64,000 nucleotides of DNA from Eledone cirrhosa (GCA_964016885.1 OZ024741.1:163432001-163496000), one strand, 5' to 3'; numbered from the stretch's first letter, positions 26,143 to 35,000 are shown. A program made the numbers and translations. The notes: a model not told the origin generated them from the letters alone.

Positions 26143-26480
26143 TTGCGAGAATGAGGGGAATACACAGGCATGGCTTCTATATATAATAGTGGCATTAAAT
26201 GAGAACAATAATAACAATACTAACAATGCTAGAAATAAATTAGTTGAAATAATCACATCAATCTAAGTAAGACATAAAGTATACTTATGACTTTAGCATG
26301 TAAAACGTGCTGATATGAGACAGATGTATGAAATTGACATGTAAAAGCTGTCATGGGGTGTATTATATATAGTGTAGAGATAAGCCGGGCTTTAAACAAT
26401 GTACCATTTCCTTTACCGTAGGTCTGGTGACCATAAGAATTATTTATTATCTGACAGATAAAATATCTGACAGATAAAAT

Positions 26481-26620
26481 AAGACCTCTCGGCCTTGCTA
26501 CCTTTCTTCCTTTTTTATTTTTAAAGAAGCGCATATGGCACTGCTTTGCAACCTGTCCGGTCGGGAGGGAGGTTAGTACAATCATTCTATCGGATAGTTT
26601 GATGTTACTAACCTCCCTCC
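26481..26620. repeat. Left inverted repeat with palindromic hairpin A
   Basis: GGAGGGAGGTTAGTACAATCA-TTCTATCGGATAGTT-TGATGTTACTAACCTCCCTCC, preceded by an arm complementary to 30107-30181. Confidence 0.85.
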
Positions 26621-26772
26621 GTCTGTCTGTTTGTCTGTCCGTATGTACGTCCGTCTGTCTGTCCTTTGGTCTCTCTGTCTGTCCGTTGGTCCGTCTATCT
26701 GTCCGTCTGTCCGTCCGTCCGTCTGTCTGTATGTCCGTCAGTCCGCTAGTCTGTATATCCGTCTGTCTGTCC
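26621..26772. repeat. Degenerate (GTCY)n tetranucleotide tract
   Basis: Seen directly in the sequence; tracts of this kind are typical of DINE-1/Helentron-associated elements. Confidence 0.8.
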
Positions 26773-26977
26773 TTTGCCTATCCGCTAAACGTCTAGTTGC
26801 ATTCCTCCACCTCCCTCTCTCCCACGATTCCGTTCGCGTCAAAGATGCAGTGCCACATTAGCGAAATCAGATAAGTGGGTCAGTAGGATATCATATTACA
26901 AAACATGTTCAGACTTGTTTATACAAGTTTAAACCAGTTACAGTTTGAATGAAATTAAGCAGAGTCAGCATGAATTT

Positions 26978-27020
26978 GATTGGCTAATAGAAATTTAGGC
27001 GGGAATAAGATATATAAATA
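26978..27020 (+). promoter_or_regulatory. Putative viral Pol II promoter
   Basis: Inverted CCAAT (GATTGGCT), a GC/E2F-like box TTTAGGCGGGAA and a TATA box TATATAAATA, about 90 nt upstream of ATG 27112. Confidence 0.6.
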
Positions 27021-27111
27021 CGATAGACAAAGAGACTTGTTACCACTCAGCACAGGCAGGAAGAAATGAAGAACGCTACTCCGTCGACTTAGAAGCAATA
27101 TACCAACAAAA

Positions 27112-27165
27112 ATGAACTACGAAGACTTAAAGCTGAGAGACGCACAAATGTTAAGCGAGTTAGAA
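27112..27165 (+). CDS. Putative NS1 leader exon (MNYEDLKLRDAQMLSELE)
   Basis: AAAAATG start context. A phase-0 consensus donor, GAA|GTAAGT at 27166, matches the frame after the acceptor TTACAG| at 28790. Confidence 0.5.
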
Positions 27166-27172
27166 GTAAGTT

Positions 27173-27541
27173 ATGCCTTTACATTTACCATTTTATAAAT
27201 ATTGTGGGCCTTTCACAGATAACTTGATGAAAAGCCGATTAATGAATTAGACGAATGTTGTCACGAACACGATTTACAATACGGGAATGAATCGATAGAT
27301 GATAGGGATGCAGATAGAGAATTAATAGAGTGCACCAAGAAAGTTGACGGAGTAGCTTCGTTTATAGTGAGACAGGCAATTAATAGTAAATTACTAATGT
27401 CACCTATATTATATTAAAAAAAAAAGAAAAATAGAACAGAATCAGTCTAAGAAGAATCAAGATAGTTGCGACGCAGACATAGAATACGACGAGGACTTTA
27501 AGACACAAGACAGTGGTATAGAATCATAACAAGATACAGAC
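27173..27541 (+). pseudogene. VP1-unique region with parvoviral phospholipase A2 domain (frameshifted)
   Basis: MPLHLPFYKYCGPFTDN, then a 1-nt shift at about 27222, then LDEKPINELDECCHEHDLQY..ADRELI. This gives the YxGP Ca-loop and the HDxxY catalytic motif. A second shift in the A-run at about 27416 and a TAA at 27527 separate it from the capsid ORF. Confidence 0.85.
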
Positions 27542-28798
27542 ATGGGGGATCCACACGTAGGGCCGTCACCAGGGGGAAGCGTAGCTATGTCACAAGGCGA
27601 TGTACCTCCGACAACAGGAGATATAAATCCTATAATATCTAAAAAGATTTCGAGAACATTTGTACATTACGTTAACTGTTTCGATCAACCGTTCGATACG
27701 GCGAAGTATAAAAAGAAAGATGGTGAATATTTAGAATTAGAAATAGATCACAGAGCAATGGTAATACCATACTACTATTTAAAAGTAAGCATGACTATTG
27801 CAGAGTTACAAACATATTTAACACCGGCAAACAATTTCAGAATTAAGTCGTGCGGATATCATATTTCAAATATAGTACCGTTATCAGATGAATTGGGGAC
27901 TTTACGGGGCACAACAACTACAAATACTACATTCAATACAAGGCCGTGGTTAACAACATATGTAGATACAAAATTTGCATTATTTCCAAACTCGACATAC
28001 GATATAGAAATACCAAATTATAGTTTCACAATTAATATACCGAGAACTAGAGAAGAGGGAAAATTAAAACACTCACATACTGGGAGATTAGTAAGAAAAG
28101 ATTGGTGGCTGTGGAACGATCAAAAAGCACCATCAGATACTTCTCAAGAAACTAACGCAGAACCTCTATTATCATATTTTAATACTGGAGATTGGAAACC
28201 GATATATGCGGGCCAAACGACGGCTTATACATGGATAAATAGATCACCCAGTTGGTTTAACCTCATGGGATATTATGCGTTTAGATGTAATTTCGATCCA
28301 CCGACTATTACTTTTCATAACGGATTGCCTACAGAGATTAATACATTGTCTGGAGGACAGAAATCACAATGGGCGCCAACATTAGCGGGTAAATGGTCAA
28401 GGGGTTTGGCAGTTGATAAACAGGCGGAAGAGGAAAATACTGTTAGATCACATTTAACTCAATTTCCTATCAATCCTTCTAATCCTCCGCCAATAGCATG
28501 TATAGACGGCATACCAATATTAGACTCACAAAACGCAATAGCAAAAATAACATTTATGTTAACAGTCACTTATACCTCAGAAATAGATTTCAAATATATA
28601 TTGGGTAGTCCACAAATGGTAGGATGGATGGCGTGGGGCAAAGACCATGCAATTATTCAAAATTCGGCTAAAACAAATATATGTAAATGGCCACAAGGTT
28701 TACGTAATTATGAAATTACACGAACACCAAAACACGACAGGCACTTCATTAATAGTAATATTACAACAACCTTCTTCATTTACATTACAGAAAACTAA
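27542..28798 (+). CDS. Parvovirus/densovirus-like major capsid protein
   Basis: Uninterrupted 418-aa T/N/P-rich ORF in frame with ATG 27173 of the PLA2 region and next to NS1. The segment IPYYYLKVSMTIAELQTYL..FRIKSCGYHIS resembles densovirus capsid strands (by eye). Confidence 0.78.
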   Translation: MGDPHVGPSPGGSVAMSQGDVPPTTGDINPIISKKISRTFVHYVNCFDQPFDTAKYKKKDGEYLELEIDHRAMVIPYYYLKVSMTIAELQTYLTPANNFRIKSCGYHISNIVPLSDELGTLRGTTTTNTTFNTRPWLTTYVDTKFALFPNSTYDIEIPNYSFTINIPRTREEGKLKHSHTGRLVRKDWWLWNDQKAPSDTSQETNAEPLLSYFNTGDWKPIYAGQTTAYTWINRSPSWFNLMGYYAFRCNFDPPTITFHNGLPTEINTLSGGQKSQWAPTLAGKWSRGLAVDKQAEEENTVRSHLTQFPINPSNPPPIACIDGIPILDSQNAIAKITFMLTVTYTSEIDFKYILGSPQMVGWMAWGKDHAIIQNSAKTNICKWPQGLRNYEITRTPKHDRHFINSNITTTFFIYITEN

Positions 28799-28811
28799 CC
28801 AAAAATGATAC

Positions 28812-30022
28812 ATGATGATATTTCCTTGGCTGAAAGAGAACGATTTCGAGTGGAACGAAGATGAAACTCCCTTTTTCGATACGAAACCGATTAAAACCAA
28901 CAAATATTGTCGTGACGAAGACATGTCGGAAACGAAAAACGTCTGGCACATGAACACTTTATGTAAATTACAAGAATTCATAGAAAAATACGACTGTTCC
29001 GTTATCTATCATCCAAAGGAGGCGAGAATATGCGATAAAAAGGAATGTAATTCTTACAATCATTTTCACATAGTATGGCTAGACACAGCAAGACCAGGCG
29101 AAAATCAAAAATTTAAATACATTCGAGCGACTTATTCAAAAGCTTGTTCGTTGAAACTGAAAATACCAGATTGTCAACGCATTAGATTTCCCAGTGCTAT
29201 GGCTAACTACCTCACACAAGAACCGCGTACGATAATTAAAGTCAGTAACGGACCGATTTTGCGACAATTCTCTTTTTGGTGTACAGCAGATTACATCCCA
29301 AAACCGACCAAAGAAGTAAAACCAGAAAATAGCGAAAAAGATGAGGAAAACGAACCGACTTTCAAATCGAGATCTGGGGCAACACTTACGTTGTTTAATT
29401 ACCTGAGGTACATGTTTACATCGAAAAACTTTCGCACAGATTACGAAATGAAACAGTTTTGGTTGACCCCAAAAAATAATGAAAATTTCATGAGAGCAAT
29501 ATCTCATCCTCAATACGAAAACGTAATGCGAAAAATAGAATGTGAAAAAATAAAAACGTTAGCCAAAACTTGGAGAGAGAAATTCAACAACATGAATTGG
29601 CAAATATTCAATGGTGGAGAATTTTTAGATCTTGAACACAGCATGATTGTATTTAAAACGATTATGTTAACCCAAAATCTTGACGAACAAGCATTTGTTC
29701 AAAATGTATGGGAACTATTAGAGAAAAAAAAAACAGAAAGAAATTTATTGGTATTACGCGGTTTACCAAATACTGGGAAATCAATGATAGCAATATCTAT
29801 TGGCGATATGTTCACTCATATCTCAACGATACAAGGTACAACAACTTTCCCGTTTCAAAATTTAATTAATATAGAATTAGGTCTAATGAGGAACCGAACT
29901 TTACCGTTGAAACACTTCAAACTTTCAAAAAACTTTCTGAAGGAGTAGATACGGAGGTTGCAGTCAAATACAAACTCGATCAGACTGTAAAACCAACGCC
30001 ATTAATCATAACAAATAATAAT
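28812..30022 (+). pseudogene. NS1: NS1/Rep: HUH endonuclease plus SF3 helicase, frameshifted and 3'-truncated
   Basis: HUH motif HFHIVW, motif 3 NYLTQ and Walker A GLPNTGKS. A 1-nt deletion at about 29888 hides Walker B LMEE, B' (FKKLSEG..VAVKYK) and motif C PLIITNN. The frame is cut by the hairpin repeat at 30023. Confidence 0.92.
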
Positions 30023-30310
30023 TGCCACCGGTCCGGTCGGGAGGGAGATTAGTACAATCATTCTATCGGATAGTTTGATTGTACTAACCTCCCTCCCTAC
30101 CGGACCGGTTGCAAAGCAGTGCCATATGCGCTTCTTTAAAAATAAAAAAAAGGAAGAAAGGTAGCAAGGCCGAGAGGTCTTGCTACCTTTCTTCCTTTTT
30201 TTAATTTTGTCTTAGTTCCAAACGCATATGGCACTGCTTTGCAGCCGGTCCGGTAGGGAGGGAGGTTAGTACAATCAAACTATCCGATAGAATGATTGTA
30301 CTAACCTCCC
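30023..30310. repeat. Right compound palindrome: hairpin A - hairpin B - hairpin A
   Basis: Hairpin A at 30023-30131; hairpin B (AAGGAAGAAAGGTAGCAAG-GCCGAGAGGT-CTTGCTACCTTTCTTCCTT) at about 30150-30198; hairpin A in the opposite form at 30223-30310. Confidence 0.9.
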
Positions 30311-30431
30311 TATTTTTTTTTTATTCATTTGTATGAAATCATCAAGAATGCCCTGATGATTTCATATAAATGAAGCAATTTTAGTCCTGTAGAAACCATT
30401 TCTATATTAAATTTTCATTATATATATATAT

Positions 30432-30966: not shown

Positions 30967-31172
30967 TACAATCAAACTATCCGATAGAATGATTGTACTA
31001 ACCTCCCTCCCGACCGGACCGGTTGCAAAGCAGTGCCATATGCACTTTGCAACCAGTTCGGTCGGGAGGGAGGTTAGTACAATCATTCTATCGGATAGTT
31101 TGATTGTACTAACCTCCCTCCCATCCGGACCGGTTGCAAAGCAGTGCCATATGCGTTTGGAACTAAGACAAA
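30967..31172. repeat. Two further hairpin A copies in opposite forms
   Basis: Copies at 30967-31043 and 31045-31155; the arm TTTGGAACTAAGACAAA is complementary to 30206-30222. Confidence 0.9.
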
Positions 31173-31750
31173 TGTCAACAAATCCTGTGTCCTCACTGCT
31201 CTCTTGTTCTTCTCTGAGACTTGGACCACACACGGGGATCATACCGCCTGCACGTTAACGCCCGCCCTCTGCCTCCGACCAGCCTTCCGTCGCCGATGCG
31301 TGTTCCGCCGATGATGCGTGCCGAGTCCGCCGCCGCCGACCGGTGTGGCTGCCGGGGATTCCAGCCAACGACGACGCCCGAACAGCGGCGGATTGATTCT
31401 TCTTCTATATCTCTTTCTCACTTTCTTTCTTCGGAAGAAATCGTCTGTTTCGATCTGGAAAGTAACGGATTCAGCCAGTAGGACGACGCCATCAGTTGTT
31501 AAAGGTCATGTACTTTTGTCATATTTGTTCTCTTATGTTGTGGGTAACCCATCAAATCTTGCGGGTTAATCAAATTTCGATAGGTTTACGAATATTTCAG
31601 AAGATATATTCACATGATATTACAAGGCAGCTGACCTAGATAACAGTGCATAGCTTTGTATTTTCTGAACCATGCCACCACAGTATCATATTTGATGTTT
31701 TCACTTGGTGAGAGTATTGTCTTGATGAGAATATCTACCGATATTGGTAG

Positions 31751-31820
<70 letters not shown>

Positions 31821-31856
31821 TGTGTGTGTGTGTGTGTATATGGTCAATAACCGATA

Positions 31857-32050
31857 GCGCATATGGCACTGCTTGGCAACCGGTCCGGTAGGGAGGGAGG
31901 TTAGTACAATCAAACTATCCGATAGAATGATTGTACTAACCTCTCTCCCGACCGCACCGGTTGCAAAGCAGTGCCATATGCGCTTTGCAACCGGTCCGGG
32001 CGGGAGGGAGGTTAGTACAATCATTCTATCCGATAGAATGATTGTACTAA
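31857..32050. repeat. Two further hairpin A copies
   Basis: Copies at 31857-31983 and 31983-32050; the latter has a fully symmetric tip. Confidence 0.9.
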
Positions 32051-32051
32051 C

Positions 32052-35000
32052 ATATGCACGCATCTCGGACATGCCTGGCTGACGGCACCTCCATGCCTGT
32101 AGAGTTTATCCCGAACTGGCAAAGCTCCTCGGTAGCACTGCCAGGCCAGGGATTTCTGGAATTTATCCATAGGCCCCGGCCCGAAAGTTCTTCCGAAGAG
32201 ATTGGCTAGTTGATTTTCGTCGACGCCTAAAGTTCCCCCAAGTACGTCGTCGCTCTTCCCCTCCACTAATCCTCTATAGAACGCCAAGATTGAGTTTCCA
32301 CCGATCACATTGCCCGATTGGTCGAGGGCTGTGAGTGCCTGAAGACATTCCACTCTCCAAGCTCGCCTTCTCGGTCTTCGCTTGTCCCAGGACTGCAGCT
32401 CTGTAAAGGAGACGAGCTGGGGAAAGACGCGTCTAGCAAACGGCGACCAGATCTGATCACCGTCGAGGAAGAGGTGGAGATGTCGTAGCCTGAGCGCGTG
32501 TCTGCGCATCATCAGCCACGGCACGCCCAGCCCTCCACGTAGCGGGTGTTGAAAGCAGATGGACCGCCGGACCATCGGAGCGCGTCCCTTCCACAAAAAG
32601 CGAAAGAGCAAACGCTCCAGCGCAGTCAGGTGAGGCTTAGGATTAGGTACGACGATCAGGCGGTAGTAGATGACGAACGCTATGTACGCGTTAGCCACCT
32701 CTGCTCGACCTTTCAGCGATAGCTTTCTCTCGGCCCATTTCTGGGTGAGGGAAGCCACCTTGCTCGTCACCTCGTTCCAGTTTTTCTCCATATGGAGGTC
32801 CGGCCCGAACCAGACCCCGAGTAATTTAACCGGTCCGTCCGTCCAACGCCCCACGACGCTGTCGGGCGGCATGGACTTGCCTCTCCAGGTGCCGAGCTGC
32901 AAGCCCACCGACTTTTCTTGGTTTATCTTTGCTCCTGTTACCGCTTCGTATTCTTTGAGAGCGGTGCCGAGCATCTGGACGAGTCTGGTGCTCGACACCA
33001 CCACGGTGACGTCGTCGACGTAAGCCGTTCGGATTTCCCGCATGCTAGTTCGCGAGGGACGCTCCTCATCGCCCAGAGTTTGTGCAGTAACACCTCAAGA
33101 GCCATTACGTACAAGGGGGACAACCTGGCGGACCGAGTGCATGATGCTGAGCGGCTGCGACAGGTGACCGTTCACCTTCACATCTGAAAACGGGCCCTAA
33201 ACCTGCTGCCTCGAGGACCGCCGCCAAGTATCGATGGTCGAACTTATCGAATGCTTTGGATTGATCCAAGTTGATCAGCCCCCCCCCCGTGCCAGCATCC
33301 TTAACCACCCTCTCTATGATGTATCGCATGAGGTGGAGGTTGTCGTGTATGGATCTGTCCGGAATGGCGCATGTCTGCGCCTCTCCCACCAGACCCTTGA
33401 CGACAAGCGCCAACCTCGTTGCTAATACCTTGCCCAAAATCTTGATCTCTGCGTTTAGCAGGGTTATGGGTCTGAAATTATCGATAACATCCCCCTTCTT
33501 CGTGTCTTTTCTCAGCAGCGCCACTGCTCCCCGGCTTACAAAACTGGGAATGCTCCCGTTCTGCTGCCAGTTGCAGTAGACGTCACTGAACAAGTCTGGC
33601 ATAAATTGATAAAGCTCGTAGGGCAGACCATCCAAACCTGGCGATTTACCCCTCGAGCAGTTAGGAATCGCTTCCCGTATTTCACCGGCTGTTATTGGCT
33701 TTTCGTAACACTGTGCCGCGGTCGTCGAGAGCCGAGGCAGTCCGTCGAGGTATGCACTGAAGTCCATGCCCCGATCCGGCCCGCCGCTGATCCCGAACAT
33801 TTCAACAAAGCGCTGCTAAAAAGCTTCTCACATCTGCTCGTGTTCGAGCAACACTCACCCGTTTTGGTCAGACAAGGACCGAATTGTGGCTTTGTTGCCA
33901 CGTCGCGCCTCTTCCACCGGGGCCCATTGGACAGCTTTTGTCCCCTCGTGTTTCAGAGCACGCGCTCTAGCTCTGACAACGCAGCCTTCGTGTTTTGCGT
34001 TGAAGAAATGGTCGAGTGCCAATCTCGCCGCAAGCACGTCGGTTGAGATGCCTGTCCTAAACGCCTCTTCTATCGTTCTGACTAGCTCTCCCTCTACTCT
34101 ATTTTCCTCTATCACTAGTCCTTTGCTAAACCTCATCGACTCTACTTTAATTGCCCTTTTCAGGGCGAACCACCATCTGTTGTTGACGATCGCTCCCGTC
34201 AACGTCCGCTTAACTAATACGCTATTCCGGTCTCTGTAAGCTTTGCGTGACGGAAAAGACGCGTTCAGCTTCCAGTAACCGGGCCCTTGTCTATGAAGTC
34301 TGTCTATGTCGATCTCACAGATCACAAATTTGTGGTCTGTGTAGTCGACTATTTTAAATTGTGGACAACTTATACTAGCCTTATCCAGTTCTCTGCAGAA
34401 TACCCTATCGAGATACGATCTGGATGACCCGATGCGGTTTGTCCATGTCCACATTGGCACATCCGGGTGATCCAGTCGATACCTGTCAGACAGTTCAAAA
34501 CGTCTGAGCAGGTTGGTGAGGCTTTTGCACCCTCCTCCCCTATCCACTAGCCCCACACAATCCCAGCGTGCATCCAAGATACCCACTAACACTAAAAGCG
34601 GGACGTTCCAAGAAAGGTCTCTAGACGTCTGAAGAAATCTGGCCGTCCTGCCCCTGTTTGGGCGTAGACGGCTACTAGCGTGAAAGCATTGCCTTCGCTG
34701 CTGGTCACGTCCAGCACCACCGACTTACCTTCTGGGTCTAGGAAGATGGCTAGTATGGCGAGATCCAAGCTTCTCCGAAAAAGCACGGCAACCCCTCCCC
34801 CGATCCTGGACGGCTGGGAGATGCGTATACATCGTAGCCGCCGAAGATCGGTGCGAAGGCTTGTGCTTCGGAGATTCTGGTCTCGCTGATGGCCACCACA
34901 TCTATGTTTAGTGACCTGAGGTCGTTGAGCAGGTGACCCTTTTCCAAGATGACCTCAGGCCACGTGCATTTATACTGCCTATTCTGAGTACAGCCATGTT

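Follow-up and report, generated by a model that had tools for sequence, protein, structure and literature searches.

In the endogenous copies of a parvovirus lineage in the genome of Eledone cirrhosa, the capsid gene (VP) precedes NS1 on one strand, where both genes are uncut, and lies between conserved signals that are predicted to act in splicing. The window, i.e., the whole stretch of DNA that was analysed, spanned 64,000 nt (OZ024741.1:163432001-163496000) and held one decayed copy. This copy carried, on one strand throughout, a hairpin, a TATA-like box, an 18-codon leader, a capsid gene with a PLA2 domain, and NS1 (Table 1). By its proteins and termini the element is a parvovirus, but its genome plan is not that of the textbook layout (NS on the left and VP on the right, as given in the accessible parts of PMC12297876 and PMC8242256), which is contradicted by a VP that precedes NS on one strand. 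The positions of the signals make it quite probable that the capsid gene lay inside an NS1 intron and that a single promoter at the left end served both genes, with spliced RNA giving NS1 and unspliced RNA giving capsid. It is moderately likely that the copies represent an undescribed cephalopod parvovirus lineage, with relatives in other hosts, in which the capsid gene is nested in the NS1 intron and intron retention is the switch from replication to packaging.

Table 1. Features of the element, in coordinates of the window.
Feature	Position	Strand	Remarks
Left terminal hairpin remnant, likely viral telomere	26480..26620	.	
TATA-like box, candidate single promoter	27011..27018	+	Putative function
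18-codon coding leader, predicted NS1 exon 1	27112..27165	+	
Unspliced leader: 28-codon upstream ORF	27112..27198	+	Overlaps VP1 ATG out of frame
Predicted splice donor GTAAGT, phase 0 in NS1 frame	27166..27171	+	
Predicted 1625-nt intron holding capsid gene	27166..28790	+	Putative splicing
VP1 unique region with PLA2 domain	27173..27541	+	Frame changes near 27220, between 27414 and 27542
Major capsid protein frame	27542..28798	+	C-terminus overshoots in window copy
Predicted splice acceptor, pyrimidine tract and CAG, phase 0 in NS1 frame	28771..28790	+	
Predicted NS1 exon 2: HUH nuclease region and SF3 helicase	28791..30021	+	Stop 28806, frame change 29890-29910, truncation 30022
Scrambled terminal hairpins at truncation point	30021..30311	.	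-141.8 kcal/mol, z -30

The NS1 frame matched PF01057 (Parvo_NS1) above the cut-off (E 2.6e-06) and contained an SF3 helicase domain. The best PDB match of the family profile was AAV Rep (E 7e-10), and an HFH motif was invariant in 11 aligned proteins. The fold predicted for the natural frame starting at the acceptor had a mean pLDDT of 51.9, its helicase half being unreliable. The nuclease region of this fold resembled AAV Rep weakly from residue 3 on (Z 5.1 (VIA), rmsd 5.5, 128 aligned), and the best Foldseek match to the AAV Rep nuclease was also weak (E 0.022). An Atlas search with the NS N-terminus returned scores that were all under 0.8.

In the VP1 unique region, the PLA2-like domain PF08398 just missed its cut-off of 23.9 bits in the window copy (23.4 bits, E 7e-05) and exceeded it in two other copies (50.4 and 36.1 bits); this domain, a feature of the Parvovirinae/Densovirinae type, is present. 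No Pfam capsid family was matched by the capsid frame. The top Atlas match of the capsid was a densovirus/parvovirus Denso_VP4/VP1_2 cluster (0.96), a match of low recognition value and a lead only. Another locus (L047:4700-6300) held more than ten tandem repeats of a short segment of the capsid gene.

In total, the 3.0-Gb genome contained 34 matches to the NS N-terminus and 55 to the capsid, both counts being lower bounds that include fragments. Twenty stretches were fetched around the best NS matches, and in these VP lay upstream of NS on the same strand wherever both genes were present and uncut. Nine representative copies were compared, a group of near-identical copies (99-100%) being counted once. 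The nine were 42-83% identical in the NS N-terminus and therefore record different viruses of one lineage, and by the same divergence the splice-like signals were kept through long viral evolution. The near-identical group comprised copies on four contigs (L031-L034) with different flanks and with inverted or head-to-head rearrangements, which points to very recent integration or duplication.

The window copy is dead. It carries at least five breaks, comprising those entered in Table 1 and a further frame change near the VP end. Contigs from three public runs of one sample, perhaps the source sample, matched 26747-30078 with 0-1 differences and agreed with the assembled stop at 28806; agreement of this origin argues only against assembly error. 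Among the matches listed for these contigs, the kind of which is not on record, a joint of 27165 to 28791 was absent. Elsewhere in the window were two reverse transcriptase ORFs of host retroelements, at 3634-5079 (+; RVT_1, E 5e-37) and 32021-33094 (-; 0.006), and, at 57704-58908, 2.7 repeats of a 452-nt unit with 99% identity.

Splice sites were judged by motif counts only, the element being taken as 27000-30025. The sequence-only reading had placed a leader ATG at 27112, 18 codons, GTAAGT at 27166 and the VP1 ATG at 27173, and all of these were found; the GTAAGT is the sole GT(A/G)AGT in the element. The 18 codons run up to the donor as that reading held, but the unspliced ORF does not end there and continues to a TAA at 27196-27198, its length being 28 or 29 codons in 9/9 copies. 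Leader and donor were also kept in homologues. A degenerate 21-nt pattern for the leader start had 19 genome matches (reversed control, 0), which represented 13 distinct leaders. In 11 of the 13, GT(A/G)AGT stood exactly 54 nt after the ATG, and in the other two the first letter of the donor was changed. The VP1 ATG followed the donor by 7 or 10 nt in 16 of the 19 matches, was unrecognisable in three, and never shared the leader's frame. Upstream of the leader ATG, at a distance of 85-101 nt, seven of nine copies carried a TATA-like hexamer.

Nine of the 18 leader residues were invariant among 10 distinct copies, against 0/18 in the codons upstream, while the last codon before the donor varied freely. 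Leader substitutions favoured third positions. The leader frame had a pN/pS of 0.38, and the two alternative frames had 0.86 and 1.27; these values pool pairwise counts from copies that are related and partly decayed, and are not independent tests. By these measures the leader appears to evolve as coding sequence. None of 36 database proteins started with a leader-like peptide, and no processed leader-NS copy occurred among the 19 genome leader matches; both results are uninformative on splicing. A second GT, at 27367, falls between two codons of the PLA2 region and was kept in 8/8 copies, in five of them as GT(A/G)AG(A/G). Splicing from this GT, were it a donor, would link PLA2 with NS1. It is more likely a conserved Val codon within a variable hexamer. 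In a crude score on the eight-copy alignment this column tied with the donor at 27166, because two decayed donors score zero.

At the other end of the predicted intron, the pyrimidine tract with CAG to 28790 and the length of 1625 nt were as the sequence-only reading had them, and the joining that it proposed is in frame with NS1, donor and acceptor both being phase 0. Of 93 YAG sites in the element, 28790 has the most pyrimidine-rich upstream tract. Its retention in homologues, on which that reading had also relied, was evident: a CAG ended exactly 21 nt before an internal Met, in NS1 phase, in 12 of 14 NS starts, with a tract of 59-82% pyrimidine across NS starts. The two exceptions were decayed copies without the invariant letters, one perhaps misplaced by one base. 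In the eight-copy alignment the acceptor was the best of 48 conserved YAG columns (8/8 copies, 0.72), the next best reaching 6/8 and 0.63. A conserved branch-point motif was not found across the copies. Where both ends were present (11 places), the intron measured 1575-1660 nt, and its length was free modulo 3.

The VP frame of the window copy extends eight bases beyond the acceptor, so that the acceptor position first proposed holds but the VP end placed there does not. In 10 of 13 sites scored, the VP stop lay 33, 34, 38 or 39 nt before the acceptor; in two decayed sites it lay 24 and 27 nt before, and in one it was not found. At a rearranged locus, L041, the distance was 58 nt. Since the VP stop of the other copies precedes the acceptor, the capsid gene would be wholly nested, and the overshoot appears to be damage in the window copy. 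The distance from acceptor to Met is fixed while that from VP stop to acceptor varies. In most copies the tract falls in non-coding spacer, and protein constraint is therefore no explanation for its retention.

The stop codon between acceptor and internal Met (TGA, 28806-28808) is present as first reported and is private to the window copy, all 13 other NS starts having a sense codon there. The guess that it had been TGG or CGA failed, as the other copies carry other codons. L041 has its own stop, one codon after this position. For the seven codons after the AG, pN/pS was 0.45, and for the next twelve 0.23 (again pooled pairwise counts, not independent); these seven appear to evolve as coding sequence. 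Counted from the acceptor, the predicted first strand of the nuclease domain spans residues 6-11, on both sides of the internal Met at residue 8. The model weakly suggests that the nuclease domain begins before this Met and that the leader mainly supplies a start.

The internal Met (28812) was kept in 13 of 14 NS starts, and gene callers place the start of most database relatives there or close by; a nearly full NS1 is thus possible without the leader. An alternative and unlikely account accepts the capsid-first order but has most NS1 arise from a second promoter in the 3' part of VP and start at this Met, with a splice that is minor or gives only an N-terminal variant. Parvoviruses may have one, two or three promoters (PMC13426907, in the part accessible), and a TATA-like hexamer column does occur near 28595 in four of eight copies; it lies, however, within VP coding sequence, is missing in the other half of the copies, and is followed by seven ATG triplets before the acceptor. 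In two of seven sequence types an AATAAA closely follows the acceptor and could terminate a capsid RNA. The account leaves the conserved leader peptide unexplained. The coding-like evolution of the seven codons before the Met also speaks against it, as does the Ala that one distant relative (P0171) has at the position of the Met.

It is quite improbable that leader and donor instead serve the capsid, as a VP leader joined to an acceptor within VP, with the acceptor at 28790 paired to another donor. A short VP1 leader followed by a donor is described for protoparvoviruses (PMC13426907, accessible part), and the GT column at 27367, kept in every copy aligned, could be the second donor. That GT, however, starts a Val codon in a hexamer that varies, the CAG before the major VP ATG of the window is not kept in other copies, and no other YAG column equals 28790 in tract and retention.

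The palindrome at 26480-26620 recurs inverted at 30040-30149 (91%), with further hairpin pieces at 30967-31182 and 31856-32051. All 14 genome matches of the left palindrome were at the window locus, and the possibility that the window palindromes are a host repeat was rejected on this confinement. Two other copies had related palindromes at 160-250 nt beyond the end of NS, and three had other hairpins at 200-500 nt before the leader. A unit of hairpin, promoter, leader, VP, NS1 and hairpin, about 4 kb long, is inferred as a composite of several copies, the termini being scrambled. Terminal hairpins around a unit of this length fit the Parvoviridae feature of a 3.6-6.2 kb genome with terminal hairpins. 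The pieces at 30021-30311, 30967-31182 and 31856-32051 show two complementary inner forms, in the manner of flip and flop termini, and are interleaved with host repeats over 2 kb. A GTCT/GTCC tandem run occupies 26621-26771, between left hairpin and promoter.

An ordinary NS-then-VP virus could yield VP-then-NS through head-to-tail multimers or a circular form, and several loci are indeed rearranged multimers. This explanation is largely refuted and retains very little probability. The gap between VP and NS was about 55-60 nt and free of hairpins in every copy, and the junction was homologous across copies 42-83% identical. Hairpins sit before the leader and after the NS end, outside the unit and never between VP and NS in the copies examined, so the order is no concatemer artefact. 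One locus, L041, has an NS part ahead of a VP part, but the two genes are truncated where they meet, and a VP C-terminal remnant still precedes the NS start. Direct repeats, which a multimer could also leave, flank two copies. Chance in A+T-rich sequence is refuted as an origin of the splice-like signals as far as sequence can refute it: phase agreement has a one-in-three background and the copies share ancestry, but the positions were fixed in 11/13 and 12/14 diverged sequences amid indels and free substitution.

The repeats in question are 130-370 nt long and 98-100% identical (L039:1112-1481 and 5297-5659; L040:1273-1427 and 5206-5449). They may be either a host duplication at integration or a multimer remnant. 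An inverted terminal repeat was considered for L039 and rejected, the repeat being direct and without a hairpin fold.

In the proposed mechanism, transcription from the TATA-like box near 27011 would give one pre-mRNA. Splicing would join the 18 leader codons to the codons after 28790, and NS1 would gain its start. In unspliced RNA the leader would become an upstream ORF of 28-29 codons ahead of VP1, VP1 would come from ribosomes scanning beyond this ORF, and the major capsid protein (start 27542) would be reached by re-initiation or further scanning. Each transcript would make NS1 or capsid, never both, and intron retention would for this reason be an early-to-late switch. Capsid translation is the least certain part of this scheme. 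An A at -3 of the leader ATG, present in 9/9 copies, should limit leaky scanning. Between +70 and the major VP start, ATG triplets were below the shuffle mean in all eight copies scored (window 7 versus 7.5; elsewhere 2-5 versus 5.3-8.1).

Searching 1.84 billion proteins with a profile yielded 36 matches at E up to 1e-30. Several of these covered the N-terminal domain; some lay on long ENA contigs and others on contigs of 3.8-4.2 kb. In a tree of the Eledone copies and these relatives, in which several forks were unresolved and branches were long, the database relatives formed sister groups to the Eledone copies. Three NS1 relatives (P0171, P0016 and P0032) were on contigs of 3807, 4017 and 4219 nt, the size of a parvovirus genome, and are possibly free viruses of the same or sister lineages. 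Three clusters of multi-copy NS1 relatives (P0164, P0173 and P0174) occur on ENA contigs as long as 1.1 Mb, which suggests that another host genome also holds many endogenous copies. The only named relatives were from Octopus (CAI9727457.1 and UniRef100_A0A0L8GWZ8; 58-72% identical over 20-26% of the query). These proteins are helicase-region fragments of the same lineage as the element; their records give them as nonstructural or SF3 fragments and list no leader or gene order. Scans of viral_contigs and metagenome_contigs contained no relative. The capsid-first layout was seen in one host genome.

The sequence-only reading knew of no parvovirus with this arrangement. Searches of the open-access literature likewise turned up no capsid-first, same-strand parvovirus and no capsid gene nested in an NS1 intron; a prior description is possible. 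In NS1 of IHHNV, a penstyldensovirus, a short coding leader exon gives the start codon by splicing. The element shares a leader-supplied start, as predicted here, but the IHHNV intron is short and is not known to hold a gene. For env of avian retroviruses a gag leader supplies the start by splicing and whole genes lie in the skipped part. Leader start and skipped genes are both predicted in the element, but the retroviruses are unrelated. B19V and the amdoparvoviruses are single-promoter viruses with splicing-based expression.

Bocaviruses, as described in the accessible part of PMC8242256, likewise use one promoter and reach VP by splicing. Common to Bocaparvovirus and the element, where it is predicted, is one promoter and one pre-mRNA in which splicing chooses between non-structural and capsid products. 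In Bocaparvovirus, splicing removes NS sequence for the capsid RNA; here the plan would be mirrored, the capsid gene on the left being removed for the NS1 RNA. The leader exon of the element is also coding, unlike in the Bocaparvovirus strategy as far as that source covers it. In the accessible part of PMC13426907, SwaBA-MePV-1-like megaparvoviruses and beetle EVEs have a PLA2 ORF upstream of NS1, predicted donors and endogenous copies in invertebrates, and all three traits are common to the element. The capsid gene of those viruses and EVEs, however, is downstream of NS1 and without PLA2 (PMC13426907), whereas in the element the entire PLA2-capsid gene is upstream, bracketed by a predicted donor and acceptor in NS1 phase.

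In the accessible parts of their sources, ambisense densoviruses (PMC12297876) and the bipartite AdSDV (PMC10267136) have NS and VP in separate transcription units. With both, the element shares a PLA2-bearing VP1, invertebrate hosts and a gene arrangement that departs from the simple NS-VP order. The use of leaky scanning to make smaller VPs is described for them (PMC12297876, PMC10267136) and proposed here. Their genes are on opposite strands or separate segments, whereas the element has its genes on a single strand and probably within one unit.

Known parvovirus plans are NS-left/VP-right, ambisense, or split in two, and a same-strand, capsid-first plan with a nested capsid gene would be a further one. 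If the proposal is true, Rep and capsid would be mutually exclusive products of one RNA, and the known default would be inverted, with the unprocessed RNA as the late message. It would offer a sharp test of gene timing by intron retention in a small DNA virus. It also predicts that the NS1 proteins of this lineage in databases have been called too short. Altogether, the findings point to recent infection of the germ line by a parvovirus, likely in a cephalopod host.
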